64,000 bases of DNA from Acutalibacteraceae bacterium (lineage in GTDB: Bacteria; Bacillota; Clostridia; Oscillospirales; Acutalibacteraceae): positions 5,896 to 69,895 of the forward strand of contig JAZQUT010000090.1 of NCBI GenBank assembly GCA_045631405.1, in the 5' to 3' direction. The translations under genes and the position numbers were made by a program. The notes beneath the pieces were generated by a model. It saw nothing but the letters and a program-made list of their open reading frames with translations. It was not told where the DNA came from and made no database searches. Below are positions 10,717 through 43,045 of the stretch, in pieces (within the stretch, counting starts at the first letter, position 1; every line of letters begins with the position of its first letter).

Positions 10717-11082
10717 TTATAAAGTTTCAATCTCAGTATCGTAATACTGCTCCTGAAAATGGATTGCTGCTGCAATTTCTTCTTTTGTGAATCGCGTTCC
10801 CACAGGTGCACCCACAAGCTTATCCTCAACATCATTATGTCTATGAGCTATTGCAATAATCTCACAGTCATATTTTTTCACCGGCCCATTGACGCCTAGG
10901 AGATAAACATCAAGCTCCTCACCGTCGCCACCAATAACATCAGGTATATAGCCATAGTTTATAGGATATGTAATAGCATAGGTTTCCTTTCTGTGAATAT
11001 ATCCCATAGGTCTGTCAATGCCTATAGCTACCCTTTTACCAAGATACGATTTAACTTGTGCTTTTCTTTCTTCAAACGTCAT
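10717..11082 (-). CDS. Short inorganic pyrophosphatase-like protein (family I PPase fold)
   Basis: GGDGEELDVYLLG resembles the DGDPLDVLVL motif of family I PPases. I prefer the start at the ATG at 11082 (MTFEERK..., RBS GGGTGG). Confidence 0.5.
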   Translation of the reverse strand: MTFEERKAQVKSYLGKRVAIGIDRPMGYIHRKETYAITYPINYGYIPDVIGGDGEELDVYLLGVNGPVKKYDCEIIAIAHRHNDVEDKLVGAPVGTRFTKEEIAAAIHFQEQYYDTEIETL

Positions 11083-11102
11083 AAAAACCACCCGTTCAGA
11101 AT

Positions 11103-11453
11103 TTATAAAACCGAACTCCATTCCTTTTCTTTAAATCCAACAAGCACAAAATCATCGCCGATTAGCAATGGTCTTTTAACAAGCATTCCGTCCGTGGCAA
11201 GAAGCTTTAACATTTCCTCCTCGGTCATTGTAGGAAGCTTGTCTTTAAGCTCCATTGACTTATACAGAAGTCCACTTGTGTTAAAGAATTTCTTTAATGG
11301 TAAGCCACTTTTCTTATACCATTGTTCAAGCTCCTTAAATGTTGGATTATCAAGCTTGATATCTCTTAACTCATATTCAATATTGTTATCATCAAGCCAC
11401 TTTTTTGCTTTCTGACAAGTGGTGCATTTTGGGTAACAAATAAAATTCAACAT
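11103..11453 (-). CDS. ArsC/Spx/YffB-family thioredoxin-fold protein
   Basis: N-terminal YPKCTTCQKAKKWL and C-terminal LVKRPLLI are typical of the ArsC family. The protein is 116 aa. Confidence 0.8.
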   Translation of the reverse strand: MLNFICYPKCTTCQKAKKWLDDNNIEYELRDIKLDNPTFKELEQWYKKSGLPLKKFFNTSGLLYKSMELKDKLPTMTEEEMLKLLATDGMLVKRPLLIGDDFVLVGFKEKEWSSVL

Positions 11454-11503
11454 AATAATTCTCCAAGAAAATATTTTTAGTCCTTTGTCGTTCTAATTAT
11501 ACA

Positions 11504-12763
11504 TCAAATATTAATTAGCTCTCTGATTTCTTCTGCTTTAACATCATTAAGGCTACATTTCTTTAAAATAGCAATATATGCCGCAGCACCTGCTGCCTCG
11601 CCTATTCCCACGCAAATTGGCATTACTCTGAAATTTGAATGTGCAATATGTGTACCCGAAATATTTCTTCCGCAAAGCAGAAGGTTTTCTTTAATTTCAG
11701 GAATAAGACAGCCATAAGGAATTGTATACCCTTTTTCCTGTTTAAAATGCTTTTGCACCCCTGTTTTGTCAAGACCTGCACCCGTAATATTATGCACATC
11801 AAAATTGAAGTAAGCATCTTTTACAACATAATCCTCAAAGACTTTCGCTTCGAGAATATCCTGCTCATTCAAGGTGTATTTACCCTTGAAATGTCTTGTT
11901 TCACGAATGCCCATAAGAGATGCGGAGCTGATAACAAAACATTTTTCGTAACCGGAAACAAATTTACGCAGATATTTAACTATGTCATCCATCTGTCTGC
12001 GACATGTAAGAGTTGCTTTTGTTAAATCCTCTGCATTTGTTCCGTCGATGTCAATAGCATTTGTCATATTGCATGTCACAACACCGGGAAGCGTTGATTT
12101 ATAGGTAAGAATATGCCCTGCAGGATATGGAATATGTTCTTTTGCAAGAGCCTGAAGTTCACCGTTTGGTGTTTCATAGGTTGATTCAAACGATCCTAAA
12201 AATATTGCCCTGTCATAGTCAACGCCACCAACCTTGAACATAAGAGTTGCAGGCTGCATTTTGTTATCGCTTTCTCTGCCAAGAACAAATTCTGCACCTG
12301 CTCTTGCAGCAATATCGCCGTCACCGGTGGCATCAATTGTAATTTTGGCATATATATATGCTCTACCTGATTTGTTAACGACAGATGCACCGAGGACTTT
12401 ATCTCCATCGCATATTGCATCCTCGGCGAAGGTATAAAGCATAACCTTGCACCCAACCTCACAAAGCATTTCAAGATAAAGTGTTTTAAGCTTTTCGGGA
12501 TCAATAAAGCTGGTGATTTCATTTTTAAATTCGCCCTCATTATTCTCTGAGCTTCTTTTTAAAATTTCGTAGTATAACGGACTACCACAGCTTCCGGTCC
12601 AATGGCTCATAAGACCCGATGTAGAAATTCCACCAATATCGCCACTCTGCTCAACAAGAATAACCTTAGCGCCATTTTTGGCAGCTGTATATGCCGCTGC
12701 GAATCCCGATGGTCCGCTTCCGAGAACAAGAACATCAGTAAGCAATTCAAACTTTTCTATCAT
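11504..12763 (-). CDS. FAD-dependent oxidoreductase
   Basis: Dinucleotide-binding motif DVLVLGSGPSGFAAAYTAAKNGAKVILVEQSGDIGG at the N-terminus. Confidence 0.8.
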   Translation of the reverse strand: MIEKFELLTDVLVLGSGPSGFAAAYTAAKNGAKVILVEQSGDIGGISTSGLMSHWTGSCGSPLYYEILKRSSENNEGEFKNEITSFIDPEKLKTLYLEMLCEVGCKVMLYTFAEDAICDGDKVLGASVVNKSGRAYIYAKITIDATGDGDIAARAGAEFVLGRESDNKMQPATLMFKVGGVDYDRAIFLGSFESTYETPNGELQALAKEHIPYPAGHILTYKSTLPGVVTCNMTNAIDIDGTNAEDLTKATLTCRRQMDDIVKYLRKFVSGYEKCFVISSASLMGIRETRHFKGKYTLNEQDILEAKVFEDYVVKDAYFNFDVHNITGAGLDKTGVQKHFKQEKGYTIPYGCLIPEIKENLLLCGRNISGTHIAHSNFRVMPICVGIGEAAGAAAYIAILKKCSLNDVKAEEIRELINI

Positions 12764-12794
12764 ATCTACTACCTAAACTGTAAATTGGAATTTA

Positions 12795-15449
12795 TCAGTT
12801 TATTCTTCCTATTTCATCAAGTGCAATATTCAGAAAATCGGGAATAGATTTTCTGAGGTTTGCAATATCTTTGATATCGTAGTTTCCTGAATTGATATCA
12901 ACAAAAATTTCTTCTGTTTTATTAAGAGAATATACTTCATTATTGGATATATCACTGAATCTTCGTGCAGAAGTGTATATATCTCCGATTTCACTGTATT
13001 TATTGAAAATCAGATTGCCTTTTATTGTGCACGCAGGGTTGGGGATGTATGCAGCAGAATCGGATTCAGAAATATCATCTGTCATAGTCTTGTATTCAGG
13101 GAATGCATTCTGCCAGATTTTGCTCTGCCACGGTGAAGCGTAGAGGGCATCCCACATATCACCACTTCCGATATAGGCATGAGTAAACCAGCCGTTGTTG
13201 AGCGCTCCGTCTCTTGCTCTTTCATCGAAGTAAATTGCGTTTTCGCCTGAATTTACAATTATATTGTTTTCGACAACATTATCTCTACCACCACCGATAT
13301 GAATTGAATTTCTCGGAATGTTGATAAGAAGATTGCCGTAAATCTGCTGACCTGAAAGAGCGTCGTCAAGATAGATACCGTCAGGCTTATGCTCGCCTGA
13401 GCCCACATTATAAATGCAGTTATATCTTATGATATTGCCGTACCATACCCAGCTTCTGCCCGAGTAAATGGCGCCTGCATCATCTGAAAGTAAGCATACA
13501 TCGTGAATGTTATTGTACTCAATAATATGGTTATTTCCTTTATAAGTGATTGCTTCGTGGGGAGCATTTACCATTTCGTTGTGGGAACAAATATTACCCA
13601 CGCCCAAGAGAGTTACGGCAGGCTGATATGTCTGATAAATCTCTGACCAATCATGGATATAGTTATTATCCGCTTTGCTGTTACCGGGTGTAAGTGTTTT
13701 TGTATCACCGCCATCAAGGATAATCCCGCCCTTGCCTGTATGGGTGATTTCGTTGTTATATGCAAGGTTGTTACTGCCGTTCATAACAAGTGCATTACCT
13801 GCTACATTTTTGATAAGGCAATTCTGCATAGTGTTATTATTGCCCGTAATAACAACGGCATCTGACCTTGTACCCTTTACAGTTATTCCGTCAATGGTGA
13901 GATAATCCGCATTTGCATTGATTACCGGATTCAACGACAATGAAAGGTCAATTTGCGCATTTTCCATATTTTCGGGTTTCCAAAGGCAAAGCAAGCCGTT
14001 TTCACGGTCAAGGTACCATTCGCCATTCGTTGTAAGCTCCTCAAGAACATTGAAGAAATAGTAAGGTGCATCAGTCTTTGTACCGTAAAGGCTAACGAAT
14101 TTGGGAGAAATCTCCCCTGTTTCTTTATCAAAGCTTCCTATGGGTGAAGAAGCATCTGCCCAGTCATATTTCCAAAAGCCGAACATCCACACATCGTCAA
14201 GTGATTTCCAGCCTGCAATTCTTCCTGCAAGTTCGGAATTAACTCTGTAAACATCGGATTCGGGGTTGCGGATTTTATCCCAATCCTTAACCTCGGTAAG
14301 TGAACCGTCGGATTCTCTGCCGAGACCCGTTGAAACAACTTCTTCTGTGAGAAGGTAATCTTCGTCGGGGTATCTTGCCAGAGCTTGTCTTTTGTCATTC
14401 ACAAAAAGTTCGCAGTAAAGCTCGCCCGTATAATCTCCGTCATAGCTTTTAGCAGTATGATAAGAACCGATTGCATATATTTTACCCCAATCATCTTTGG
14501 TGAGAGAATAAGGATCTTTTGTCAAATCTGCAACTACAACACTTTCCTGTGCTTCATGTGAAAGTCTTTCTGATATTTGAGGGTATTCCTGTGCGGATTT
14601 AAAATCGTTGTGTGAAAGAGTTACTCCGCCATTTATTATAACTTCGCCATTATATGAGCAATATGTTATAGGGCAATCCTTAGTGCCTGAATCCTCTTTT
14701 GTAAATTTGAGAGAAGAAACACGGTATTCCCCTGCTTCAATGCAAACGGTTATACCTTTTTTCCCCGTTTTATCGGTATTTCTTACCGCTTCAACAGCTT
14801 TTTCGATTGTAAGAAAAGGTGAAGCCTTTGTTCCGGGGTTACTGTCGCTCCCCTTTGTGCTTACATAAAAATCGCCTTGAATCATTTTATCATCATCTTT
14901 CGTATTTGTATATGTTGAAAGAGTGGGTGTAGGTGCTTTGTATCCGCTATAAATTTCATCCATTGCAAAAGGTACTATGTATGAATAACTGCCGATTACA
15001 AATCCCGCAAGAACAAGAAGTGAAAGAATTGCTTTCAAAAGCTTTTTATTAAACATTTTGAAAACGCAAAGAAAAACAAGAACTGTTGTGATAATAAATG
15101 ATAAGTAAACAGGAAAAATCAATGCTATCTGGTTCAGCTCGCCATTACCGATAATGCCGTTTATCAAAAGCATAGCTCCTACAAGAACAACCGCAAAAGT
15201 AACCGCAGTAATAACAGCATTCATAACTGTTTTCTTTTTGCCTGCGTTTCGGCTGAGGGGTATCGAAAGTAATGCCCCGCCCAAACAAACTACCACTGCA
15301 AGAATAAACTGAAGCGCAGTATATTCATAACAGAGATATTGCATATGGAAATAATACAAACCAACAATTGTTAATGCAATGCCTGAAAAAAAACATATAA
15401 TATCGGAAACTATTTTCTTTTGAAATAACTTCTTCATAAATTTAATCAT
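12795..15449 (-). CDS. Membrane-anchored right-handed parallel beta-helix protein (pectate-lyase-fold carbohydrate-active enzyme candidate)
   Basis: About 5 N-terminal TM segments are followed by SDSNPGTKASPFLTIEKAVEAV. Repeated beta-helix coils follow, for example NNNTMQNCLIKNVAGNALVMNGSNNLAYNNEITHTGKGGIILDGG. Confidence 0.65.
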   Translation of the reverse strand: MIKFMKKLFQKKIVSDIICFFSGIALTIVGLYYFHMQYLCYEYTALQFILAVVVCLGGALLSIPLSRNAGKKKTVMNAVITAVTFAVVLVGAMLLINGIIGNGELNQIALIFPVYLSFIITTVLVFLCVFKMFNKKLLKAILSLLVLAGFVIGSYSYIVPFAMDEIYSGYKAPTPTLSTYTNTKDDDKMIQGDFYVSTKGSDSNPGTKASPFLTIEKAVEAVRNTDKTGKKGITVCIEAGEYRVSSLKFTKEDSGTKDCPITYCSYNGEVIINGGVTLSHNDFKSAQEYPQISERLSHEAQESVVVADLTKDPYSLTKDDWGKIYAIGSYHTAKSYDGDYTGELYCELFVNDKRQALARYPDEDYLLTEEVVSTGLGRESDGSLTEVKDWDKIRNPESDVYRVNSELAGRIAGWKSLDDVWMFGFWKYDWADASSPIGSFDKETGEISPKFVSLYGTKTDAPYYFFNVLEELTTNGEWYLDRENGLLCLWKPENMENAQIDLSLSLNPVINANADYLTIDGITVKGTRSDAVVITGNNNTMQNCLIKNVAGNALVMNGSNNLAYNNEITHTGKGGIILDGGDTKTLTPGNSKADNNYIHDWSEIYQTYQPAVTLLGVGNICSHNEMVNAPHEAITYKGNNHIIEYNNIHDVCLLSDDAGAIYSGRSWVWYGNIIRYNCIYNVGSGEHKPDGIYLDDALSGQQIYGNLLINIPRNSIHIGGGRDNVVENNIIVNSGENAIYFDERARDGALNNGWFTHAYIGSGDMWDALYASPWQSKIWQNAFPEYKTMTDDISESDSAAYIPNPACTIKGNLIFNKYSEIGDIYTSARRFSDISNNEVYSLNKTEEIFVDINSGNYDIKDIANLRKSIPDFLNIALDEIGRIN

Positions 15450-15550
15450 CTCCGCAAATTCTTATTTACTTAGCTCATCATATCACAAAAAAGACAATAA
15501 AACAATAAATAACTATGGTGATTTTCGTTGTTGTTTTTCATTTTTGTAAG

Positions 15551-15559
15551 TGATATAAT
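15551..15559 (+). promoter_or_regulatory. Extended -10 promoter element upstream of the GRE operon
   Basis: TGaTATAAT at 15551-15559, about 25 nt upstream of the ATG at 15584. Confidence 0.4.
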
Positions 15560-15583
15560 CAAACAAGAAAGTTGGTGAGCATT

Positions 15584-16483
15584 ATGGAAACGGGAATTGT
15601 ATTCAATATACAAAAATTTTGCATACACGATGGGGATGGTATTCGTACTTGTGTTTTCCTGAAAGGTTGTCCTCTCAGGTGTGTATGGTGCCATAATCCT
15701 GAAAGTCTTGATAAAAAGCCAATGCTTTCCTTCAACAAGCAAAAATGCTCATCTTGTGGCAGGTGTCTTGCAGAATGCTCTGCACGAACAATTAAAAACG
15801 GTACTCTTGAAGTCAACCGAAGTAATTGCATAAATTGTGGCAAATGTTTAAACACTTGTCTCAACGACGCTAACGAAATAATCGGCAAGGAAATGACCAC
15901 CGATGAGGTCCTCGAAGAAATATTAAAGGATAAAATGTTCTATGACACCTCAGGTGGTGGTCTTACCATTTCAGGTGGCGAACCATCATATCAGTCTGAT
16001 TTCACATTGGAGCTTCTCGCTCTTGCAAAAGGAAACGGAATTTCTATTGCCATTGAAACCTGTGGCATTGGTTCTCGCGATTTCTACGAAAAGGCTGCAG
16101 ACCTCGGCACAACTTTCCTTTATGATATAAAATGCCTTGACCCTGTTCGTCATAAAGAGCTTACGGGCGCAGACAATGCTCATATTCTCGCAAATCTTAA
16201 GCATCTTATGGACAGAGGTGCAGATGTTATTATAAGACTGCCCCTTATCCCCAAATGCAACGATAGTGACGAGGATATAGCGAAGCTTTCTGCATTTCTT
16301 AAGGACTACAAGGACAGATACAGATATGCAGAGATTATGCCTTATCACTCACTTGGTACAGCCAAGGCTGAAAAGCTTGGAACAGCCAACAGCTACATTC
16401 ACGATAATGCAACAGATAAGGAAATATCGCATTGGATTTCAATTTTCAATTCACACGACATAGATATTAAAATATCTGAATAA
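15584..16483 (+). CDS. Glycyl-radical enzyme activating protein (radical SAM)
   Basis: CPLRCVWCHN (CX3CX2C) plus two ferredoxin-like clusters, CSSCGRCLAEC and CINCGKCLNTC. It lies directly upstream of a GRE. I prefer the ATG at 15584 (RBS GGTGAG). Confidence 0.9.
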   Translation: METGIVFNIQKFCIHDGDGIRTCVFLKGCPLRCVWCHNPESLDKKPMLSFNKQKCSSCGRCLAECSARTIKNGTLEVNRSNCINCGKCLNTCLNDANEIIGKEMTTDEVLEEILKDKMFYDTSGGGLTISGGEPSYQSDFTLELLALAKGNGISIAIETCGIGSRDFYEKAADLGTTFLYDIKCLDPVRHKELTGADNAHILANLKHLMDRGADVIIRLPLIPKCNDSDEDIAKLSAFLKDYKDRYRYAEIMPYHSLGTAKAEKLGTANSYIHDNATDKEISHWISIFNSHDIDIKISE

Positions 16484-16504
16484 AACATTTATATAGGTGT
16501 ATTT

Positions 16505-18670
16505 ATGATAAATTTAGCTCAGATCGACCCCTTCCTTTATGGATATTTTTCAGATGAAAGCCTTGAAATTGGCGAAAGAGTGGGACTTGCTCTTCTCCAT
16601 GCTTCAAAAAATCTTGAAATTAAATTTTCTCGTCAGTTGCTTCCTGAAACTGCCTTTGTAACAGCAAGTGGCAGCTCAGGCTACTCCCCCTCTGACGGAC
16701 TTTGGTTTAACGAGGAAAACATTTTAAAGCTTGCAGAGGAATATCCCGAGCACGAGGAAGAGCTTTGCAGATATATTCAAGAAATAAAGATTTTCAGAAG
16801 CAAATCACAAATGCTTAATTGTGAACTCACCGATGCACTCGACAACGCAGGTGCTGAGTGGGGTGGTGGCTGGGGTGGACATTCAAACCCTGATTACGGA
16901 CGAATAATCAATTTGGGTACAGACCACCTAAGAGCAATTATTGCAAAAAATCGTGACAACCATCCTGACGAGGACTGGTTTTATCGCTCATGTAGCCATG
17001 CTCTTGACGCAATAGATATTTTCGGTGAAAGATATCGCGAGACAGCGCTTCAAAATGCAGAAAAATGCGAAAACGAGAATGACAAAGCATTTTATCTTCG
17101 TATTGCGGAAGCATTTAAAACTATTCCTAAAAAGCCTGCATATGACTTCATGTCTGCAATGTGCTCATTTATGCTTGTTTTTGCTCTTGATGGTAGTGAT
17201 TCTCCCGGTCGCTTTGATCAATATATGTATTCGGCATATCAGAAAACCGAAAACAAGGAAGAGGTTACAGAGCTGCTTGACAGACTGTGGGATTATTTCC
17301 GTGACCATCGCTCGTGGAATCTCTGCATTTCTGGTAGTGACGAAAACTGGAACGACGAATCCAACGAGCTTACATATGAAATTCTTCAAATGGTGAGAAA
17401 AAAAGGCTATAACACCCCCAACCTCACCTGCCGAATCCACAAAAATACACCTGATAAATTATGGAATGCTATTGCAGATACTCTTGCAATCGGAACAGGT
17501 CTTCCTGCGCTTTATAACGACGATGTAGTTTGCGTTGCTCTTGAAAAGCTTGGTATTCCACCTCAGGACAGCCACGATTACTGTATGAACGGATGTAATC
17601 AGATTGATATTCTCGGTAAAAGCCATATGGGACTTGAGGATGGCGAGGTTGTCTTTGCAAAATGCCTTGAGCTTGCTCTTCATAATGGCGTGGATGCCAT
17701 GAGTGGCGAAAAGATTTCTATTGAAACAGGTGATCCCAATTTCTTCACCACCTACGAAAGATTTGAAAGAGCGTTTATGGATCAGCTGGAGTTTGTAACA
17801 TACAACTCCTGTAGTAGTGCAAACAGATGGCAGCATATGCGTGGCGTTTTCCAGCCCCATCCCCTGCGATCCTGTCTTATCGAGGGTTGCCTTGAAAAAG
17901 GCCGTGACTACAGAAACGGTGGTCCACTCTACAACCACGGACAGATTTTAGCCGAGGGTATTGCAGATGCAGGCGACAGTCTTTATGCAATCAAAAAGCT
18001 TGTTTATGACGAAAAGAAATATACAATGTCAGAGCTTATTGGTGCTCTCAATTCAAACTTTGAAGGATACGAGCGCCTCCACCACGATTTCAAGAATTGC
18101 GAAAAATTCGGCAACGATATTGAAGAGGTTGATAACATAACTGCAAGGGCTCTCAACCGTTTCTTTACAGTTCTCAAGCGCAACAGAACCTACAGAGGTG
18201 GCGTGTTCACAGGTGGCTGCAGTACATTCAACCGTGCTGCAGGGTATGGAAGCAAAACTGCTGCACTCCCCAACGGAAAGCTTAAGGGCGAGCCCCTTCT
18301 TGCAGACAGTATTGCTGCTACTCCAGGTCGCGACACAAACGGCCCCACTGCGCAAATAAAATCCGTTCTTAAATATAGCCACACAGATGCTTGCAGTGGC
18401 TTCGTTTTCCAGAACAAGTTTGAAAAGAAGCTGTTTAATACCGAAAAAGGGAAAGCCTCTTTCATTGCACTTGCAAAAGCATTTTTCGCAGGTGGAGGTC
18501 AGCAATATACAATTACTGTTGTCTCCCCCGAAGACCTTATAGATGCTAAAAAGCATCCTGAAAATCACAGAAATCTCATCGTCCGTGTTGGTGGCTACAG
18601 CGACTATTTCACAAACCTCCCCGAAGAGCTTCAGGATAATGTAATTGAAAGAACATTTATAGAAACATAA
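16505..18670 (+). CDS. Glycyl radical enzyme (PFL-like superfamily), unknown substrate
   Basis: C-terminal glycyl-radical motif NLIVRVGGYSDYF (RVGG at 18584-18595). Cys-loop region LPALYNDDVV...DSHDYCMNGCNQIDILGK (GCNQ at 17591-17602). GGHSNPDYGRIINLG and PNLTCRIHKNTP are also family-typical. Confidence 0.9.
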   Translation: MINLAQIDPFLYGYFSDESLEIGERVGLALLHASKNLEIKFSRQLLPETAFVTASGSSGYSPSDGLWFNEENILKLAEEYPEHEEELCRYIQEIKIFRSKSQMLNCELTDALDNAGAEWGGGWGGHSNPDYGRIINLGTDHLRAIIAKNRDNHPDEDWFYRSCSHALDAIDIFGERYRETALQNAEKCENENDKAFYLRIAEAFKTIPKKPAYDFMSAMCSFMLVFALDGSDSPGRFDQYMYSAYQKTENKEEVTELLDRLWDYFRDHRSWNLCISGSDENWNDESNELTYEILQMVRKKGYNTPNLTCRIHKNTPDKLWNAIADTLAIGTGLPALYNDDVVCVALEKLGIPPQDSHDYCMNGCNQIDILGKSHMGLEDGEVVFAKCLELALHNGVDAMSGEKISIETGDPNFFTTYERFERAFMDQLEFVTYNSCSSANRWQHMRGVFQPHPLRSCLIEGCLEKGRDYRNGGPLYNHGQILAEGIADAGDSLYAIKKLVYDEKKYTMSELIGALNSNFEGYERLHHDFKNCEKFGNDIEEVDNITARALNRFFTVLKRNRTYRGGVFTGGCSTFNRAAGYGSKTAALPNGKLKGEPLLADSIAATPGRDTNGPTAQIKSVLKYSHTDACSGFVFQNKFEKKLFNTEKGKASFIALAKAFFAGGGQQYTITVVSPEDLIDAKKHPENHRNLIVRVGGYSDYFTNLPEELQDNVIERTFIET

Positions 18671-18673
18671 AAA

Positions 18674-18708
18674 GCACCCACTCGTTTCTGAAGCGAGTGG
18701 GTGTATTT
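18674..18708. terminator. Bidirectional stem-loop terminator between convergent genes
   Basis: CACCCACTCG (18675-18684) pairs with CGAGTGGGTG (18694-18703), followed by a T-run. Confidence 0.7.
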
Positions 18709-19872
18709 TTATTTAAACTCTGTATGTCTGTAATTTTTGAATTTCAAAGAACCGTCTTTGGCAATATCGGTAGTGTTAACACCATAATGCCAGGTGCTTT
18801 CGTCTGCATCCATAATTTTACTGTCATATAATCTGTAGCAATTATAACCACCGGTTTGATTATAAACAAGGTAAATGCCCTCGTATTCTGCGCAAAAATC
18901 GTTACAATGGTCGTGACCACAGAACATAGCCTCTGCGCCGTTTCTTTTCATTGACTGAAAAAGCCCTGAGTTAAACCATGAGCCACCCATAGGCTCGCGC
19001 ATCTCACCATAGAGCACCTTAACATTTTCGTTAGGTGTAAATGTACCGTCATCATTCTGTGTAAATAAACCTCTGTATTCCGGCACGGGAATATGCAAAT
19101 AAATCAAGGATTTTACATTCTCGCCGTATTCCTTTTTGAGTGAAGAAATTTCATTTTCGTACCATTTAATCTGAGAGGGCTTAACATAGTCTGCGCCCTC
19201 TAAATCTGCAGGAACGCCGTCATTGGTTCTGTGAGGCTCCTGCAAATATCTGCCTGAATCCAGGAAAACAAGAGTTTTTCTTATTGTGCTTTCGTCACTC
19301 ATAATGTTTATGGTGAAATTGCCGTAGCCGTAAAGTGACTCGTCACCGAATTTACAAAGGCAATAGGGCGAATCAATAAAGCTTTTATAAAGCTGATATT
19401 TAAAGGAGCCCTTCTCCTCTCTCGCCTCGTGATTTCCGAAAACATAAGTCCAATAAACACCGATGTCTTCCATCATTTTTGCAAACTGAATTGCATCAAT
19501 CTGCTGATACTTTGAAAGAATACAGTCACCTGTAAGCACAACCAAATCAGGCTTTAAATCAGCAATTCTGTCTGCAAGCTGCTGAAGAGTTCTGTTATTC
19601 AGTTCATAATCATCGTCTATATGTAAATCGGTAGAGCAAAGGATTCTGAAATCCTCGTCAGAAAAGCTGCCATCAGGATTCATTTTTGCAATATATGTTG
19701 AATTTTCTGTTGATTTAAGAATTTTAACTCTTGTACCAACATTTTTGGTTTTTATAGCCGATAAAAACCTGTTTTTACAAAGTTTTCCATTTGTTAAATT
19801 ATAAATAGGCTTTTCCAAGGCAATAATCGCCTTCATTGAATTTTGTAAAATAAAGCATCTGAGTCCGTACAT
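18709..19872 (-). CDS. Calcineurin-like metallophosphoesterase
   Basis: Motifs DLHIDDD, LTGDCIL, GNHE and GHDH occur in the canonical order. The true start may be the internal MKAII... (19836). Confidence 0.8.
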   Translation of the reverse strand: MYGLRCFILQNSMKAIIALEKPIYNLTNGKLCKNRFLSAIKTKNVGTRVKILKSTENSTYIAKMNPDGSFSDEDFRILCSTDLHIDDDYELNNRTLQQLADRIADLKPDLVVLTGDCILSKYQQIDAIQFAKMMEDIGVYWTYVFGNHEAREEKGSFKYQLYKSFIDSPYCLCKFGDESLYGYGNFTINIMSDESTIRKTLVFLDSGRYLQEPHRTNDGVPADLEGADYVKPSQIKWYENEISSLKKEYGENVKSLIYLHIPVPEYRGLFTQNDDGTFTPNENVKVLYGEMREPMGGSWFNSGLFQSMKRNGAEAMFCGHDHCNDFCAEYEGIYLVYNQTGGYNCYRLYDSKIMDADESTWHYGVNTTDIAKDGSLKFKNYRHTEFK

Positions 19873-19886
19873 AACCTATCCCCTTA

Positions 19887-20192
19887 TCAAAAAATCCCCT
19901 TGTTATATTTCATCATTGCATAAACAATCAAAATAATACCGGATGTAAATCCGACAATCAGTATTATGTTAGCAATATTCAGAGAAAGCAAGTCTGATAT
20001 TCCTGCAGCAATTATTGTTAAACCGATAATAATTGAGCCTGCGCCAATCTTTTTTCCAAATGGCAGAACATCCTCTTCCTTTACTCTTTTTCTGTGATAT
20101 GAATGGAGCATTGATATATGACCTTTTGTATTGAGTATTCCTACAACGATTAAAAATACACCTATAGCTATCTGTACAATTGCCTCTGTCAT
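19887..20192 (-). CDS. Small membrane protein (DUF3784-like)
   Basis: 101 aa, with three hydrophobic segments and a central SMLHSYHRKRVKEED loop. Confidence 0.5.
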   Translation of the reverse strand: MTEAIVQIAIGVFLIVVGILNTKGHISMLHSYHRKRVKEEDVLPFGKKIGAGSIIIGLTIIAAGISDLLSLNIANIILIVGFTSGIILIVYAMMKYNKGIF

Positions 20193-20362
20193 ATTTAAAC
20201 CTCCATCTTTGAAATCACTAATAACACTTTCAGTATATCACAAATATTCAACTGAAACAACAAAAAAGCAAGCATTAATAATATAGACAAAAAATACACT
20301 TTATGATATAATTCGACTTTCGAAGAATAACTTACACATTAACAGGTGGAATACAAAGCAAA

Positions 20363-21709
20363 ATGAAAAACAACGATTTTACAAGTGGCGCAATATTACC
20401 GAAGCTCCTTAAATTTATGCTTCCTGTTCTGTTTTCAATGTTTCTGCAAGCGCTTTATGGTGCCGTGGACTTGCTGATTGTGGGACAGTTCAGCACAACT
20501 GCAGATGTTTCAGCAGTTTCAACAGGCTCACAAATTATAACAACTCTGACAAATCTCATTGTCAGCTTTTCAATGGGTATAACCGTTGCCGTGGGTCAGC
20601 GAATTGGTCAGAAGCAACTTAAGGATGCAGCACATACCATAGGCACGGGTATTATAATTTTCTCAATAGCAGGTCTTGTTTTAGCAGTAGTAAGCCTTTT
20701 AGGCGCACCTGCTTTAGCAAAGCTTATGCAAGCACCATCTGAAGCCTTTGAGCTTACAACAAGCTACATAAGAATTTGTGGTGCAGGCTTTGTTGTAATT
20801 TCAGCATATAATCTTCTTGGAAGTGTTTTCAGAGGCTTGGGTGATTCCAAAACACCTCTCATAGCAGTTGGTATTGCCTGTGTATTTAATATCATTGGCG
20901 ACCTTGCATTTGTTGCAGGCTTTAATATGGGAGCATCAGGCGCTGCTCTCGCAACTGTTTTAGCTCAGCTTATCAGCGTTGTTATTTCATTCTTGATGAT
21001 ACGAAGAGCAAATCTTCCCTTTGAGTTTAACAAATCATATGTAAGGCTGAAGAAACGCTTTGCTTCTGTAATAGTAAAAATCGGCACACCAGTTGCATTA
21101 CAGGAATTTCTTGTTGGTAGCTCATTCCTTGTTTTACTTGCAATTGTAAATCAGCTTGGCGTTACTGCATCTGCAGGTGTCGGGGTTGCTCAGAAGGTTT
21201 GCACATTTATTATGCTTGTGCCCATTTCCTTTATGCAGTCAATGACTGCCTTTGTTGCTCAGAATCATGGTGCAGGCTTAATGCACAGAGCTCAGAAAAC
21301 CTTGAAATTAGGAGTTGGAGTTTCCTTTGCATTCGGTGTTATAATGTTTCTTGTAACCTTCTTCCGTGGTGACCTTTTAGCATCAATCTTCTCTCAGGAT
21401 GCTGATACTATTACAGCTGCATGGGAATACCTTAAGGCGTATGCAATAGACTGTCTGAACACCTGCTTCCTTTTCTGCTTTATAGGCTATTTCAATGGTA
21501 TCGGAAAAACAAAGTTTGTTATGCTTCAGGGTCTTTGTGGCGCCTTTATTGTGAGAATTCCCTTCGCACTTCTTATGCAGCAAATAGGAGACAATTCTCT
21601 TTTCCTTATAGGACTTTCAATCCCCTGTTCAACAGTATTGCAGATAGCAATGTGCTTCATAGCATATTTCTATATAAAATCCAAATCCCCAAAAACAACT
21701 GATATATAA
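20363..21709 (+). CDS. MATE family efflux transporter
   Basis: 448 aa with about 12 TM segments. The N-terminus ILPKLLKFMLPVLFSMFLQALYGAVDLLIVGQ is typical of MATE/NorM proteins. Confidence 0.88.
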   Translation: MKNNDFTSGAILPKLLKFMLPVLFSMFLQALYGAVDLLIVGQFSTTADVSAVSTGSQIITTLTNLIVSFSMGITVAVGQRIGQKQLKDAAHTIGTGIIIFSIAGLVLAVVSLLGAPALAKLMQAPSEAFELTTSYIRICGAGFVVISAYNLLGSVFRGLGDSKTPLIAVGIACVFNIIGDLAFVAGFNMGASGAALATVLAQLISVVISFLMIRRANLPFEFNKSYVRLKKRFASVIVKIGTPVALQEFLVGSSFLVLLAIVNQLGVTASAGVGVAQKVCTFIMLVPISFMQSMTAFVAQNHGAGLMHRAQKTLKLGVGVSFAFGVIMFLVTFFRGDLLASIFSQDADTITAAWEYLKAYAIDCLNTCFLFCFIGYFNGIGKTKFVMLQGLCGAFIVRIPFALLMQQIGDNSLFLIGLSIPCSTVLQIAMCFIAYFYIKSKSPKTTDI

Positions 21710-21712
21710 CAC

Positions 21713-21744
21713 AAAAAGGAACTGACAAAGTCAGTTCCTTTTTA
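21713..21744. terminator. Stem-loop terminator between convergent genes
   Basis: GGAACTGAC (21718-21726) pairs with GTCAGTTCC (21730-21738), followed by TTTTT. Confidence 0.7.
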
Positions 21745-21746
21745 CT

Positions 21747-23183
21747 TTATGCAAGTGCATTTTCCAAGCAACGCATACAGTACATAGCATCCTCATCTAT
21801 ATAGCATTTACAGTTTCCACATTTGTTCGAATGAGTTTTGCAGCAATTGGTATCACCACTTTTAGCGATAAATGCAGAACAACCTGAATGGGCACAAATC
21901 GTTGTTGCTGTACCATAGTGGTTTGTGAATTTTTCTGAGTCAGCTGTACCCTCTGCATTTTTCTCAGCTTCTATATCAACCTTGATTTCATAATCAAAAT
22001 CATAGAACCCCAAAACCTCAGGCTGGCGAATATTTTTCCAAGACTTTAAGATACTGCAACGAATTATATATCCGTGAAAATCCCTGTATGTTGACTCAAA
22101 TGCGATTGTACCATCTTTTTTCAGAGCAAAAGCCGAACCTAAAAATTTACCTTTTGATACAGAAACATTTTTCCATTTTGAACAGATACTATAGCTATCA
22201 TGACCAGCATAAACGACCTTGCCATTTGCCTTCATACCAAAAGTACCATCTGAACATGTGGTTATTGAAACGATGTCGCTCCAATCCTCAACATCGCACA
22301 CATCCTCTCTGTCATCACCGGCGAAAACTACCGTACCGTCTGACTTCAGTCCCATAGTGCGATTTCCTGAAACTGAAATTGCAACAATATCTGTCCAATC
22401 CTCAACATCACATTGTCCATAACCATTGTAGCCTGTAGCAATTACCGTTCCGTCTGAGCGCAGACCAACAGTATAATTAGAACCACATTCAACGGCAACA
22501 ATGTTACGCCATCCGCTTACATTATCCTGACCATAATCCTTTGCATCGTAGTATTTGTAATGAACAACCGTACCATCCGATTTTAAAGCTGCAAAATTAT
22601 TATATCCACCATCTATGGAAACAATATCTGTCCATTTCACATCACCATACCAATCAACTACAGTACCATCACTTTTCAGCACATGAGAGGTTTCGCAGTC
22701 AATATCAATAACATCATTCCAATAGTCAGGTGCCTCTACTAATTCAAACTCACGCTCCTTGGAAACATATTTAGCTATATATATTGACCCATCCTCTTTT
22801 ATTGCATATATTGAATTATCAACATCAAAAGTCTCTCTGACTGCAATTTTATCCCATAAAGCGAAAGAGCGTGTTCGTGCATCCGAGTAATCGCCTAAGG
22901 CACCGAAAGCCATAGCTGCAGCAGCCTTTCTTCCAACAGACTCCAATCTTTCAGCTTCTTTGTAATTACAAAGAAGCACCTGTTCAGTAGCATCTTTATA
23001 TTCACCTAAAGCCACAAAAGCCTCAGCCGCATTCACAAAATCTCCATTATTCAACATTTCTGTTGCTTTTTTGTAATCGCTAGCAGGAATAGCAACCTTA
23101 AGTATTAACACTATTGATAAGGCAACAAGAGCAATTGCTATAACAACTGAAATTATAATTTTAAATATTTTGTTTTTTTTCAT
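21747..23183 (-). CDS. Membrane-anchored RCC1-like seven-bladed beta-propeller protein with Cys-rich C-terminus
   Basis: N-terminal TM anchor. Seven repeats of the type LKSDGTVV / LRSDGTVI / IKEDGSIY. The last ~45 aa contain 10 Cys (CAHSGC...CCKTHSNKCGNCKC...CMRC). I prefer the ATG at 23183 (RBS GAGGTG). Confidence 0.65.
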   Translation of the reverse strand: MKKNKIFKIIISVVIAIALVALSIVLILKVAIPASDYKKATEMLNNGDFVNAAEAFVALGEYKDATEQVLLCNYKEAERLESVGRKAAAAMAFGALGDYSDARTRSFALWDKIAVRETFDVDNSIYAIKEDGSIYIAKYVSKEREFELVEAPDYWNDVIDIDCETSHVLKSDGTVVDWYGDVKWTDIVSIDGGYNNFAALKSDGTVVHYKYYDAKDYGQDNVSGWRNIVAVECGSNYTVGLRSDGTVIATGYNGYGQCDVEDWTDIVAISVSGNRTMGLKSDGTVVFAGDDREDVCDVEDWSDIVSITTCSDGTFGMKANGKVVYAGHDSYSICSKWKNVSVSKGKFLGSAFALKKDGTIAFESTYRDFHGYIIRCSILKSWKNIRQPEVLGFYDFDYEIKVDIEAEKNAEGTADSEKFTNHYGTATTICAHSGCSAFIAKSGDTNCCKTHSNKCGNCKCYIDEDAMYCMRCLENALA

Positions 23184-23246
23184 AAAAAGCACCTCAAACA
23201 ATAATTTCCTTTCATTATTATATTAAGTATTTATAATTGACTTCAA

Positions 23247-25571
23247 TTACTTTTCCACGATTTCAACCTTGCCGATTTCACCATTGACATATTCACCATT
23301 CTGATAATATGCCTTTAAATTGATTTTTACTGTCGCTCCGACAGGTACATACAAAACAGCATCGGTATCCTGAGGAATTGTAAGGTCTATATTAAAGCTC
23401 TCTCCAGCCTTTTTATAATCAAGAGTGATTAAGCCCTTTACGCTGGGAACAGTACAATTCATACTGTCAGACAGAGTGTATTGTGGGTCAATTTTAACCT
23501 TTTCATAGCCTGCTTCAAGAGGTGCGATACCTGCAAAATGCTTACTCATTATAACAAGAGGACCACCACTCCATGCGTGATTCATAGTGCCCTGCCAAGA
23601 TTCCCAGAACTCCCATAGGGTTGAGTAATCCTCGCACATCATATCGTTATATCTTTCCTTGATTCTGTCTCTTGCAGCTTCATATTCGCCTATTTTGCAG
23701 AGAGCCTCAAGAACATAGTATTCCATATAAGGGCTTGAATTCTGGGTTGTTTTAAGCACATTTGTTATAGTAGCATACTGCTTTTTATCTGCAAGCCCTG
23801 CCAGAACTGCAAGAGCATTGGCTCTGTCATCAGGCTCTTTCACATCATCACTTTTAAAGCCATCGTCTGTCCAGAGAGACTTATAGCCCTTTGCAATAGC
23901 TTCTTTTCTTTCGGTAATAAACTTAATATCCTTGTCTTCACCTAAAACCTCAGCCATATCCTCTATGGAAGAAAGCGCATAATAAACCCATGCATTTTCG
24001 ATGGCAGTCATATCTGCTTTTTTGCCCCAATCAGGCCAATCCCAAGAGCCCTCACGGTGAACAACAAGATTATTTTCCCCCATTTCCCAAAGCTTCAAAT
24101 AATCAATGGAGGCAGCATAAACCTTTTTCACAAAAGCCTTATCGCCTGTGTATTCATAATATGTTCTGAATCCTACAATACCTGCAAGCTGCTGAACAGG
24201 AAGCTCAAAATAGTCGCCACTTATAGGCACAACTGTCTGAAGCACCTTAGTTTCGTCAACATGGGAAAGCATTGCCTCTACACCCTTCTGATACAGTAAA
24301 TATGAATTACTGTCCAGGGAGTACATCGTCATAATCATTTCGCTTGTAACATCGCCCCACCATTGTGCTCGTTCTCTGTCGGGACAATCCATAAAATTAT
24401 CTCGCATTGTCACATAAAGTGTACGCAAGGATTTCTGCCACAAGGAATTCAAAAACTCATCATCGCACTTGAAATCACCACTGAATGAGCTATCATAGCC
24501 TGTTTCACGGTATTGAAGCGAAACAATTGTAACATCCTTGGGAATTTTGTATGTGATGTGTTCACCGTTAAACCATCCCAATGCCTCAAACTCCTGCTCG
24601 CCCTCTTTGGTTATGTAGGTATTTGAAACTGCACCTATCACGGTATTCTCCGTTGTTATGCGAATTTTTTTACCTGCAGGTGCTATAACCTTGAGATATG
24701 GTGTAAGCTGAGCGTTATAAGGGATATCTACGGTTATTTTTTCGCCTAAATTCTTGGTTACGGTATAGTTCTCGTAATCCTTTGAATTCTCGTAATCCTT
24801 AAGACCATAGTCCTTAAGGAATGGTATTCCTCTCGGGTAAAGCTTGCCATATGCACCCTTACCACCAACGCCATATTCAGTTGCGTTTTCCCAGGTCGAA
24901 AAATCATAATCATCATTTAACCAATCAGCCATATCCTCCCTTGCATCAAAATAAATGCTGTATTCAGGGAGTCTGTAATTAGGTGGATAAAGAGGACTAT
25001 CAACAAACGCGCTATTTCTTTTTACCTTCCATGTCTTATCAGAAATAATCGATATATCATCACCAATAGCTTCAAAAATGAAACCACCTTGTCCACTACT
25101 GCTATAGGAATAGCTTGTTTCATCATCCCAATACCAAGCCAATGCACAAATTGAGTTTTTGCCCTTTTTAAGATATGGCGCAATATCAATACCGTCATAA
25201 TATCCGCTGTTTTTAGCAGGGCCTCGTTTCACGCTTCCCTCAAAAACAACACTTTCTCCGTTTATGTAAAGCCAGTATTTTGAGTCGGCTGAGATGTGAG
25301 CAATAAGTTCTTCTGGAACTTTATCAATATTTACGTTTTTATTTAAGCACATCCATACATTTTTCTCTGTAAGGTTATCTTTGTCCCATATCCATTTCGC
25401 TTTCCAATCTTCTTTTTCCTCTGTGGAAATTACGCTGTATTCAGGAATCGTATCAGGAATTTTGTAATTGTTTGTATATGGTATCATTGACGAATCCCCC
25501 CACGAAAAAATTGAAGAAACAAACGCTGCAGCTATTGCAAGATACGAAACAATAGTCTGTAAAATTTGCAT
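23247..25571 (-). CDS. Alpha-L-rhamnosidase (GH78)
   Basis: AKWIW near the N-terminus and MDCPDRERAQWWGD (compare the GH78 DCPQRDERLGWTGD). The protein is 774 aa. Confidence 0.8.
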   Translation of the reverse strand: MQILQTIVSYLAIAAAFVSSIFSWGDSSMIPYTNNYKIPDTIPEYSVISTEEKEDWKAKWIWDKDNLTEKNVWMCLNKNVNIDKVPEELIAHISADSKYWLYINGESVVFEGSVKRGPAKNSGYYDGIDIAPYLKKGKNSICALAWYWDDETSYSYSSSGQGGFIFEAIGDDISIISDKTWKVKRNSAFVDSPLYPPNYRLPEYSIYFDAREDMADWLNDDYDFSTWENATEYGVGGKGAYGKLYPRGIPFLKDYGLKDYENSKDYENYTVTKNLGEKITVDIPYNAQLTPYLKVIAPAGKKIRITTENTVIGAVSNTYITKEGEQEFEALGWFNGEHITYKIPKDVTIVSLQYRETGYDSSFSGDFKCDDEFLNSLWQKSLRTLYVTMRDNFMDCPDRERAQWWGDVTSEMIMTMYSLDSNSYLLYQKGVEAMLSHVDETKVLQTVVPISGDYFELPVQQLAGIVGFRTYYEYTGDKAFVKKVYAASIDYLKLWEMGENNLVVHREGSWDWPDWGKKADMTAIENAWVYYALSSIEDMAEVLGEDKDIKFITERKEAIAKGYKSLWTDDGFKSDDVKEPDDRANALAVLAGLADKKQYATITNVLKTTQNSSPYMEYYVLEALCKIGEYEAARDRIKERYNDMMCEDYSTLWEFWESWQGTMNHAWSGGPLVIMSKHFAGIAPLEAGYEKVKIDPQYTLSDSMNCTVPSVKGLITLDYKKAGESFNIDLTIPQDTDAVLYVPVGATVKINLKAYYQNGEYVNGEIGKVEIVEK

Positions 25572-25663
25572 AAAAACCTCCCTAATGTTGTCTGCGATGA
25601 TAAAACATTTCTTTTAAAATAAATTTTTTCAATAAATTGAAATTTGTAAAAATAATTATACCA

Positions 25664-26251
25664 TTAAAGCAAAAAAACCAACCCAATCAGCAAACCGCCT
25701 GCAAAGCCTGAAATGTGTTCAAATGCGGTAGCTTTCCCTACAAGCATTCCGCCGATTGTGTAGATAGCTAAAACTATCAACGCTATTGCAGGTACGGGAG
25801 AAAAGAAAACCGTTCCGTTTTTAACTGCCAGCATAACAAATACTGCTATAAGTCCGTAAATTCCTGGTGATGCACCCTCGCCCTCGTGGATCTTATATAC
25901 AAAAGCCATATATAAACCCGAAATGAAAGTTGCACCAATATAGCAAATTGCGGTTTTTGCCATACCAAGCTGTGACTCTACTGCCCAACCTACTATAAGA
26001 GTTGCAATTATATTTGAAACGATATGCCATGTTCCAACATGGAGAAGTGCGGATGAAACAAGTCGCCACACCTGACCACTTTTAATTTTCTTTTCTGAAA
26101 GATGCAAAGCGTGGTTTATATAGCCTTTATTATGACCTGACCACAGTTTTTCTTTGGTTGTTACTGTTTCGGTTTTGGGGATTAAAAGGAAATTATCAAG
26201 TATGTAGATTATAAAAATAACAGCACAAAATGCTATGGTGAAAATCGGCAT
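25664..26251 (-). CDS. Rhomboid family intramembrane serine protease
   Basis: LLHVGTWHIVSN (HxxxN) and GASPGIYGL (GxSxG) in a 6-TM protein. Confidence 0.85.
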   Translation of the reverse strand: MPIFTIAFCAVIFIIYILDNFLLIPKTETVTTKEKLWSGHNKGYINHALHLSEKKIKSGQVWRLVSSALLHVGTWHIVSNIIATLIVGWAVESQLGMAKTAICYIGATFISGLYMAFVYKIHEGEGASPGIYGLIAVFVMLAVKNGTVFFSPVPAIALIVLAIYTIGGMLVGKATAFEHISGFAGGLLIGLVFLL

Positions 26252-29491: not shown

Positions 29492-29520
29492 TTGAAACAT
29501 TTACAAAAATATGGTATTAT
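29492..29520 (+). promoter_or_regulatory. Promoter of the GH92-GH27-GH29 operon
   Basis: TTGAAA (29492-29497), a 17-nt spacer, then TATTAT (29515-29520). It lies upstream of the preferred ATG at 29552. Confidence 0.5.
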
Positions 29521-29551
29521 AATTTCATATTTAGCGAAAGTAGGATGCTTT

Positions 29552-31621: not shown

Positions 31622-31634
31622 GAGGTAGATAGAA

Positions 31635-32942: not shown

Positions 32943-32973
32943 ATTAAACCTTCTTAATGGGGGGGGTAGAATT

Positions 32974-34449: not shown

Positions 34450-34498
34450 CATAAAAGAGGATGTGAAAAAACTTATTGCTTTTTCACATCCTCTTGTT

Positions 34499-36007: not shown

Positions 36008-36142
36008 ATTTTCACCTGCAACTTTAAATTTCTTTAAATAATTATAACACCTGATAAAAGTAAAAACAACATCATAAATTTTATTGACACAACACACACA
36101 ATTTTATAAAATAAGTCTATAAAATTTCAGAGGTGATTTTCC

Positions 36143-39700: not shown

Positions 39701-40074
39701 ATCTTCTTATAAACTATGAAGAAGCTACCTCTATGATATTATTTGCCATAGGCTTCACTATGTTGGTTTTCTCAAAAAATCTGTTAAAGAAAATTATGGG
39801 GCTCAATATTATGGACACAGGCATTTATCTTTTCCTCGCCTCTATGGGCTACATTGAAAACAAGCTCTCTCCCATAGTTCCCTCAACAGGTAATGTCAAT
39901 GCTTCAGATTATATTAACCCTATACCTACAGGACTTGTTCTTACAGGTATCGTTGTTTCAGTCAGCGTTTCGGCACTTATGCTTGCGCTCACAGTAAGGC
40001 TATATAAAAAATTCCATACTCTTAACCTTGACGAAATTTACGAAAAATGCAATAAAGAGGAGGAAGATGAATAA
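39697..40074 (+). CDS. mrpC: Mrp/Mnh antiporter subunit C (NuoK-like)
   Basis: 125 aa with 3 TM segments. IMGLNIMDTGIYLFL resembles NuoK/MnhC. Confidence 0.75.
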   Translation: MNLLINYEEATSMILFAIGFTMLVFSKNLLKKIMGLNIMDTGIYLFLASMGYIENKLSPIVPSTGNVNASDYINPIPTGLVLTGIVVSVSVSALMLALTVRLYKKFHTLNLDEIYEKCNKEEEDE

Positions 40075-41582: not shown

Positions 41583-41587
41583 TTTTA

Positions 41588-43033: not shown

Positions 43034-43045
43034 GAGGTAATTTTA

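Follow-up and report, generated by a model that had tools for sequence, protein, structure and literature searches.

The subject of this analysis is a two-gene cassette in a 64,000-nucleotide stretch of DNA, hereafter the window, from an Acutalibacteraceae bacterium (GenBank assembly GCA_045631405.1, contig JAZQUT010000090.1, positions 5,896 to 69,895 of the forward strand), in which an activase gene is followed by the gene of a glycyl radical enzyme (GRE) with an N-G-C-N-Q cysteine loop. GREs are oxygen-sensitive radical enzymes. Two co-directional open reading frames (ORFs) are listed on the forward strand, at 15572-16483 (303 residues, TTG start) and at 16505-18670 (721 residues). The first encodes a radical SAM GRE-activating enzyme, recognized by TIGR02494, by the Pfam Radical_SAM and Fer4 domains and by its Cys motifs; its start is more probably the ATG at 15584, which is preceded at six bases by GGTGAG, than the TTG at 15572, and the feature is taken as 15584-16483. 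The second, assigned by Pfam, NCBIfam and alignment to PDB entries, is the GRE itself. Upstream of the activase, a putative extended -10-like promoter element, TGATATAAT, can be read at 15551-15559 on the forward strand; a consensus promoter scan did not pick out TGATATAAT at this position. A bidirectional intrinsic terminator at 18674-18704, with a 14-bp stem and a T-run on both strands, lies between the GRE gene and a convergent metallophosphoesterase gene. The predicted unit is a compact bicistronic cassette in the order promoter, activase, GRE and terminator, of which we infer the promoter element from its letters.

The GRE ORF is intact. A motif search placed G-C-N-Q at residues 363-366 and R-V-G-G-Y at residues 694-698, and Pfam assigned a PFL-like domain (PF02901, residues 124-582, E = 2e-112) and a Gly_radical domain (PF01228, residues 600-703, E = 4e-23). 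The glycyl radical motif R694-V-G-G697-Y698 is encoded at 18584-18598 and the Cys loop N362-G363-C364-N365-Q366, the thiyl radical site, at 17588-17602, both on the forward strand. An earlier note on this DNA had described the glycyl motif as canonical and GLPALYNDD...DSHDY as the usual pre-loop context, and both were recovered. A phmmer search against the PDB superimposes DYCMNGCNQ of the query on DYCLMGCVE of choline trimethylamine-lyase (CutC), with residues 271-373 aligned free of gaps and C364 paired with CutC Cys489; CutC residues are numbered here as chain index +31, which reproduces Cys489 and Asp216. No G-C-x-E loop was found anywhere else in the 721-residue protein. The assignment of G-C-N-Q as the thiyl loop, for which the note had named a G-C-V-E loop elsewhere as the refuting observation, is upheld by this result, by the gap-free alignment and by the invariance of the loop described below. 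One of the PDB matches, 5fav, is the E491Q mutant of CutC, whose loop reads GCVQ. The Cys-Cys pair of formate-lyases is absent, since the loop holds a single Cys, and the TIGR01255 score is 76.9 against a cut-off of 994.2. The radical Gly697 is kept and is not Ala, Ser or Thr as in aminoacyl radical enzymes.

The protein is shorter than its solved relatives. Residues 119-717 pair with residues 158-783 of the glycerol dehydratase (GD) chain 1r8w, which implies about 39 fewer residues at the N-terminus and about 27 fewer internally, all ahead of the Cys loop, in agreement with the short length remarked on before. An AlphaFold2 model built from a 68-sequence alignment has a mean predicted local distance difference test (pLDDT) score of 94.8 and a predicted template modelling (pTM) score of 0.93. 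Foldseek places propanediol dehydratase (PD) 5i2g first (TM-score 0.90, 28% identity), followed by GD 1r8w and PD 9rco, and then by CutC and HypD. The protein is a complete GRE fold with a Gly loop and a Cys364 loop, and every element of the radical relay is in place.

The relatives of this protein form a sharply bounded family. A word-index search returned more than 120 clusters that share 82-92% identity with the query and almost all have 721 residues; they are from ruminant and gut metagenomes and are named "hypothetical protein". An exhaustive HMMER search against 50%-identity representatives gave about a dozen clusters that are 42-54% identical, followed by a sharp drop to at most 37%; among themselves, the members are 42-56% identical. 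Complete members are 716-734 residues long, and every one of them carries M/L-N-G-C-N-Q together with RVGG[YF]. In a tree of 161 GREs, from which the PhdB sequence is absent, the N-G-C-N-Q sequences make up one clade with a support of 96. Its sisters are one N-G-C-A-Q cluster and one G-G-C-N-N cluster, and the clade is nested in a larger group of short GREs (700-770 residues) with RVGG motifs and loops reading A-G-C-S-Q, G-C-G-Q, G-C-A-Q, G-C-T-Q and G-G-C-T-E. These short enzymes, several of which also have Gln two residues after the Cys (Cys+2), differ from the family in identity (at most 37%) and in lacking the N-G-C-N-Q...H-M-G-L-E-D-G-E signature; like the family, they fall below the curated thresholds, none of ten representatives of the neighbouring clades reaching any NCBIfam cut-off. 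We also note three relatives (P0256, P0244 and P0199) with RVSTY, RVATY or RVAAY in place of RVxGY, in which the radical Gly has become Thr or Ala, resembling the recently described aminoacyl radical enzymes; P0256 has in addition a C-M-Q loop.

Conservation was compared between 102 family sequences and 128 outgroup clusters. N-G-C-N-Q is invariant in 102/102, as are Gly697 and Cys364. The strand that follows the Cys loop, H374-M-G-L377-E378-D379-G-E381 (17624-17647, forward strand), is conserved at 97% or more in the family and at less than 25% in the outgroup. The residues invariant specifically in the family are concentrated on the Cys loop and this next strand (M361, N362, N365, Q366, D368, H374, M375, L377, E378, D379 and E381), and others are W271, Q443, P474, Q480, L482, T562, S573, R577, S631 and Q666. 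Against seven close homologues, the ratio of nonsynonymous to synonymous substitution rates (dN/dS) is 0.06-0.07. The loss of the canonical Glu and the want of conserved pathway genes in the protein's own clade might be taken as signs of a GRE homologue that has decayed or is non-catalytic. A Gly, a Cys and a whole remodelled loop that do not vary among 102 members, a dN/dS of about 0.07, a retained dedicated activase and a fold predicted with high confidence argue strongly against decay, which we consider very improbable.

Family patterns are matched in 438 GTDB species genomes, mostly of ruminant and gut Clostridia. The close relatives come from Acutalibacteraceae, Oscillospiraceae and Clostridia metagenome-assembled genomes (MAGs) from the guts of goat, sheep, yak, cattle and buffalo, and metagenome loci of the family are known also from human gut and camel. 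Within the order the distribution is patchy: 5/201 sampled genomes carry the gene, the source genome included, and the carriers amount to 9/35 genomes in one taxonomic family and 12/151 in another. The cluster member listing contained generic names only and no cultured organism. As the earlier note had advised, we checked whether this clade is characterised, and the outcome was negative throughout. The query scores below every curated cut-off, namely 380.6 against 678.2 for PFL2/glycerol dehydratase (TIGR01774), 340.7 against 1050 for CutC, 317.2 against 1100 for HypD, and 287.2 and 273.8 against 1000 for HpsG/HpfG. There is no close PDB entry for the family, its best solved relative being about 28% identical, and a literature search found nothing on it. 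A June 2026 review of all characterised GREs (Imrich et al., PMC13450708), in which many clades are unassigned, includes no N-G-C-N-Q-type enzyme among those characterised. The family is a distinct, strongly conserved, uncharacterised and monophyletic group of GREs of about 720 residues.

The significance of the altered loop follows from the role of the residue at Cys+2. All GRE 1,2-eliminases and all three isomerases (HplG, YbiW and PflD) keep C-x-E; in the eliminases this Glu hydrogen-bonds or deprotonates the substrate, and in GD and PD it takes the C1-OH proton, while in the isomerases it deprotonates the substrate hydroxyl (PMC13450708). CutC and HypD mutants with Glu changed to Gln are inactive (PMC7079210). 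In the present family, the corresponding position is Gln366 in all 102 sequences. The list of loops that the earlier note had given, with G-C-V/I-E in the dehydratases and lyases and C-C in PFL, is correct for the dehydratases and lyases and incomplete for the superfamily. Gln occurs at Cys+2 in 21/128 outgroup clusters and in the phenylacetate decarboxylase PhdB (Cys482-x-Gln484), of which the Q484E, Q484A and Q484L variants are inactive, and PFL and BssA carry Ser at this position (PMC7079210). Cys-x-Gln is already known in GREs and is not unprecedented.

A second catalytic residue of the diol dehydratases has been retained. In GD, the proton for the leaving hydroxyl is proposed to come from His164 (PMC13450708). 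By a sub-region search, His126 (codon 16880-16882, forward strand) aligns with this residue in 1r8w and with PD His166 in 5i2a, and His stands at this position in 101/102 family members and in 113/128 outgroup clusters. PD from Roseburia inulinivorans (5I2G/5I2A) and GD from Clostridium butyricum (1R8W) are the best structural matches, at TM 0.90 and 27-28% identity, and share with the query a ten-stranded barrel with Gly and Cys loops, the aligned His126 and a three-cluster activase. In contrast to PD and GD, where the Cys loop contains Glu (E440/E435) preceded by Val or Ile, the query has Gln preceded by Asn; it reads RVGGY rather than RVAGY, has no microcompartment, falls below the TIGR01774 cut-off and is about 66 residues shorter than GD.

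CutC (5FAU and its mutants) is the best PDB match by sequence (E = 7e-87). The phmmer alignment pairs His126 with Asp216, Ser270 with Phe395, Leu377 with Thr502, Glu381 with Tyr506 and Phe575 with Ile700, and G-C-V-E of CutC with G-C-N-Q. The positions invariant specifically in the family align with substrate-contacting residues of CutC, and Glu378, Asp379 and Glu381 are located on the strand to which Thr502 and Tyr506 of CutC belong. At two positions, a bulky residue has given way to a small or polar one: Ser, Thr or Ala is present at 270, where CutC has Phe395, and Ser573 occupies a site taken in other GREs by Tyr, Val, Leu or Ile. Together with Trp271, these substitutions suggest a larger, polar, sugar-type pocket, the pocket residues being assigned by alignment to solved GREs.

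On this basis, we tentatively propose, at a chance somewhat short of even, that the enzyme cleaves a C-O bond of a sugar- or polyol-derived substrate by radical chemistry, with its acid-base residues relocated. The cognate activase would install a radical on Gly697, from which a Cys364 thiyl radical would be formed to abstract hydrogen from a small molecule with hydroxyl groups, most probably one derived from a sugar, deoxy-sugar or polyol. The adjacent C-O bond would then be cleaved, in a dehydration or in a ring-opening or lyase step, to give a carbonyl product. His126, kept from the diol dehydratases, would protonate the leaving group, and Asn365 and Gln366 would do no more than hydrogen-bond the substrate. 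Proton acceptance, the task of the usual Cys-loop Glu, may be unnecessary or may have moved to the invariant acids; as Gln366 and Asn365 cannot be bases, the candidates for this role are Glu378, Asp379 and Glu381. The diol-dehydratase scaffold and His126 together suggest chemistry of the eliminase type on a substrate that bears hydroxyl groups. Since the C-x-E Glu is absent from the catalytic loop, the enzyme probably carries out none of the reactions of its closest known relatives in the same way. We regard as possible, with considerable doubt, a GRE reaction new to the superfamily, namely C-O (or C-C) cleavage of a C4-C6 sugar, deoxy-sugar, polyol or sugar acid, perhaps one that stems from rhamnose, in which Asn and Gln would position the substrate and His126 with Glu378, Asp379 and Glu381 would provide acid-base catalysis. 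As to the previous suggestion that the loop signals a different chemistry or substrate, the remodelled pocket lends good support to a different substrate, and a different reaction class is a plausible extension.

The activase scores 333.7 bits with TIGR02494 (cut-off 174.35); none of the substrate-specific activase models attains its own threshold for this ORF. It contains C33x3C37x2C40 and two CX2CX2CX3C motifs (C59..C69 and C86..C96), a combination that makes it a three-cluster type. An orthologue lies directly upstream of the GRE gene, on the same strand, in 76/80 close loci. The source genome, a MAG of 2.33 Mb and 113 contigs with a completeness of 97%, yielded no microcompartment shell gene (PF00936), control genomes giving matches in the same search. 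The operon consists, as had been claimed, of a three-cluster activase and the GRE only, with no microcompartment. Three further GREs are encoded elsewhere in the genome (C44:2429-3892, minus strand; C31:36963-38846, plus strand; C84:1219-2959, minus strand); these comprise a G-G-C-T-E short GRE with RVGGY, an A-G-C-Q-E GRE and a PFL with Cys-Cys, and both the G-G-C-T-E and the A-G-C-Q-E enzymes score below the PFL2 subfamily cut-off. Weak evidence of expression comes from one gut metatranscriptome, whose contigs cover about a third of the stretch and agree at 95% identity or more with parts of the activase gene and with the 3' end of the GRE gene.

Beyond the activase, the neighbours vary among the 80 close loci. 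The divergent beta-helix gene of the window, previously put forward as context, is incidental: it lies near the cassette in 1/80 close loci and was rejected as a conserved partner. The window's GH78 (glycoside hydrolase family 78) orthologue is near the cassette in 15/80, in varying position and orientation. A PF12831 FAD oxidoreductase occurs within four genes in 17/80. In 13 of these 17 loci (L027-L037, L042), the oxidoreductase is a paralogue, 33% identical to the window copy at 11504-12763, whose gene directly precedes the activase gene in the same orientation, some 2.2 kb ahead of the GRE start; in that sub-lineage the operon may have it as a third member. When L016-L095 are compared with window positions 11000-26000, the GREs are 76-88% identical, yet the flanking genes are almost wholly different; the cassette or its surroundings have been rearranged often.

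Family loci were dereplicated at 80% identity to 60 groups, with about four neighbours examined in each. Within three genes, an activase is found in 26 groups, any NAD(P) oxidoreductase in 14, an efflux pump in 8, a beta-propeller in 6 and a glycoside hydrolase (GH78, GH3 or GH36) in 5. The NAD(P) oxidoreductases mostly adjoin the family gene and are co-directional with it; on an estimate that about 1% of genes belong to such families, some 2-3 of 60 loci would be expected. They include aldo-keto reductases, short-chain dehydrogenases/reductases (SDRs), an iron-dependent alcohol dehydrogenase (Fe-ADH) and GFO/IDH/MocA dehydrogenases, and the frequency of co-directional carbonyl reductases and dehydrogenases points to a carbonyl product or an alcohol substrate. 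The carbonyl product of the proposed C-O cleavage would in many relatives be handled by such a neighbour. Similar pairings are found in GRE dehydratase and lyase pathways, for example that of glycerol dehydratase with its Fe-ADH. Other recurrent neighbours of the more distant members are a YncE/lactonase-like beta-propeller, AraC and IclR regulators, MATE or ABC exporters, metallophosphoesterases, GH3, GH36 and GH78; in one genus, rhamnose mutarotase (RhaM), an AraC regulator and a lactonase-like beta-propeller adjoin the family gene. ThiI, the CCA-adding enzyme and IspE also recur and were set aside as housekeeping genes.

Nearby glycosidase genes, reported earlier for this region, are indeed present, as a GH78 rhamnosidase at 23247-25571 and a GH29 fucosidase at 32974-34449, and RhaA is encoded in the source genome along with five GH78 genes. 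A molecule derived from a sugar is suggested both by the enlarged, polar pocket and by contexts with glycosidases, RhaM and AraC. The same setting would suit a known reaction, that of a microcompartment-free 1,2-propanediol (or glycerol) dehydratase acting on propanediol from rhamnose or fucose. The top structural matches of the query are propanediol and glycerol dehydratases and the leaving-group His is kept; rhamnosidase and fucosidase genes occur in the window and in relatives, some loci have RhaM and an Fe-ADH whose best model is lactaldehyde reductase, and the other non-PFL GREs of this RhaA-containing genome have G-C-T-E or G-C-Q-E loops, not the G-C-V-E of known dehydratases. We nevertheless find a known dehydratase quite unlikely, for an invariant Gln takes the place of the proton-accepting Glu of GD and PD, small polar residues stand where other GREs have aromatic or bulky pocket positions, the PFL2/glycerol dehydratase score is far below its cut-off, as given above, and the Fe-ADH reaches only 222.6 against the lactaldehyde reductase cut-off of 523. 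In one taxonomic family, RhaA is present in 12/12 carrier genomes against 59/139 non-carriers; because this association fades at the level of genera, it was not counted as a test.

The exporters raise another explanation, in which the enzyme is a PhdB-like decarboxylase: Gln, rather than a Glu that would repel it, would sit beside the substrate carboxylate, CO2 would be lost from a polar or plant-derived acid, and a volatile or toxic product would be exported or reduced. PhdB is the only characterised Cys-x-Gln GRE, and its Gln is essential, the Q484E variant being dead. MATE or ABC-type exporters are near the family gene in the 8/60 groups noted above, frequently adjoining it in the same direction, the window has a MATE gene 1.7 kb downstream, and the nearby glycosidases could release aglycones. 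Against a decarboxylase, the closest matches are diol dehydratases, CutC and HypD, whereas HPAD is reached by sequence at E = 2.5e-23 and is not among the listed Foldseek matches. PhdB is described as an enzyme of 95.6 kDa with a hydrophobic pocket of Trp495, Tyr691 and Val693, and its essential pocket set is His327, Trp495 and Tyr691; the family members are of about 81 kDa, keep the dehydratase His126 and have polar or acidic, not aromatic, family-specific residues, and the position of Trp495 (Cys+13), matched by offset and not by sequence alignment, is the invariant Leu377. A decarboxylase of this kind appears unlikely.

A third explanation is suggested by the phosphoesterases and sugar-type dehydrogenases. 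The enzyme could be an isomerase like YbiW, PflD or HplG, converting a cyclic sugar derivative (anhydro- or deoxy-, possibly phosphorylated) to a keto-isomer with no net elimination. Recurrent neighbours of the family include GFO/IDH/MocA dehydrogenases, a xylose-isomerase-like TIM barrel, aldo-keto reductases and metallophosphoesterases, and sugar-type neighbourhoods of some relatives would fit YbiW and PflD (8ID7, 8ID0; "anhydroglycolysis"), which act on sugar derivatives, in particular sugar phosphates, and match the model at TM 0.85-0.88; the pocket residues are polar. By sequence, however, YbiW and PflD rank below CutC, PD and GD. All three known isomerases keep the C-x-E whose Glu deprotonates the hydroxyl, and the partner aldolases and sugar-phosphate context of YbiW and PflD are not seen with the family: no kinase or aldolase is consistently adjacent, and the one adjacent GHMP kinase, at a single locus, is the housekeeping IspE. 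We judge isomerization to be improbable.

Several points weigh against C-O cleavage with relocated acid-base residues, the reaction that we prefer. Gln cannot deprotonate a hydroxyl and the Glu-to-Gln mutants of CutC and HypD are inactive, so a classical eliminase would need a relocated base, and this base is placed by alignment. The only characterised C-x-Q enzyme is a decarboxylase (PMC7079210). No pathway gene is universally linked to the family, only the activase being constant in the window's own clade, and the recurrence of efflux pumps (8/60) and of metallophosphoesterases (3/60) is not explained by C-O cleavage. Neither the lactonase-like propeller nor RhaM was found in the source genome with queries from distant relatives. 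By genus, RhaA is present in 4/4 carrier and 7/11 non-carrier genera. The neighbouring loci are phylogenetically related, and the enrichment figures overstate their independence.

Several other features of these loci were observed. Calcineurin-like metallophosphoesterase genes recur beside family members; one is the gene convergent with the cassette in the window (18709-19872, minus strand), and some metagenome loci have the order aldo-keto reductase, GRE, activase and phosphoesterase (L167:5028-5933, L178:4385-5272, L185:5231-6118). In one genus, three GRE genes lie within 10 kb (L014:9076-19445, L141:756-11125), one of which encodes the N-G-C-N-Q enzyme; its companions have an A-G-C-W-G loop with RVCGF and a V-G-C-N-E loop with RVTGF, and an IclR regulator, a beta-propeller and an SDR are encoded between the three. 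In the window, positions 29492-37207 hold a run of genes for a GH92 alpha-mannosidase, a GH27-type alpha-galactosidase, the GH29 alpha-L-fucosidase, an unassigned 532-residue ORF and a BNR/sialidase-like protein, a set that suggests foraging on N-glycans or plant glycans. Further on, 40074-46557 is occupied by four Proton_antipo_M (Mrp/complex I antiporter-like) subunit genes in a row.

GREs carry out chemically hard anaerobic reactions that shape gut metabolism, through trimethylamine, H2S, p-cresol, skatole and propionate precursors. Orphan GRE clades are to be expected; the present one is a sharply defined family with a rewritten catalytic loop, in which a diol-dehydratase-like scaffold lacks the glutamate needed by every characterised eliminase and isomerase. 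Its limits are clear and it is abundant among the Clostridia of ruminants and guts, with 438 species genomes and thousands of metagenomic proteins, and its invariant signature M-N-G-C-N-Q-I-D...G-K-S-H-M-G-L-E-D-G-E provides a simple annotation marker. The self-contained two-gene cassette, with its high-confidence model, makes it a good experimental target. If C-O (or C-C) cleavage with relocated acids is indeed what the enzyme performs, the superfamily would gain a new arrangement of catalytic residues, and rumen and gut Clostridia an anaerobic step of sugar metabolism that has gone unrecognised. Assignment of the substrate would extend the set of GRE reactions, or at the least reveal a new way of catalysis, and would also identify a fermentative step in the breakdown of rumen carbohydrate or plant glycosides.

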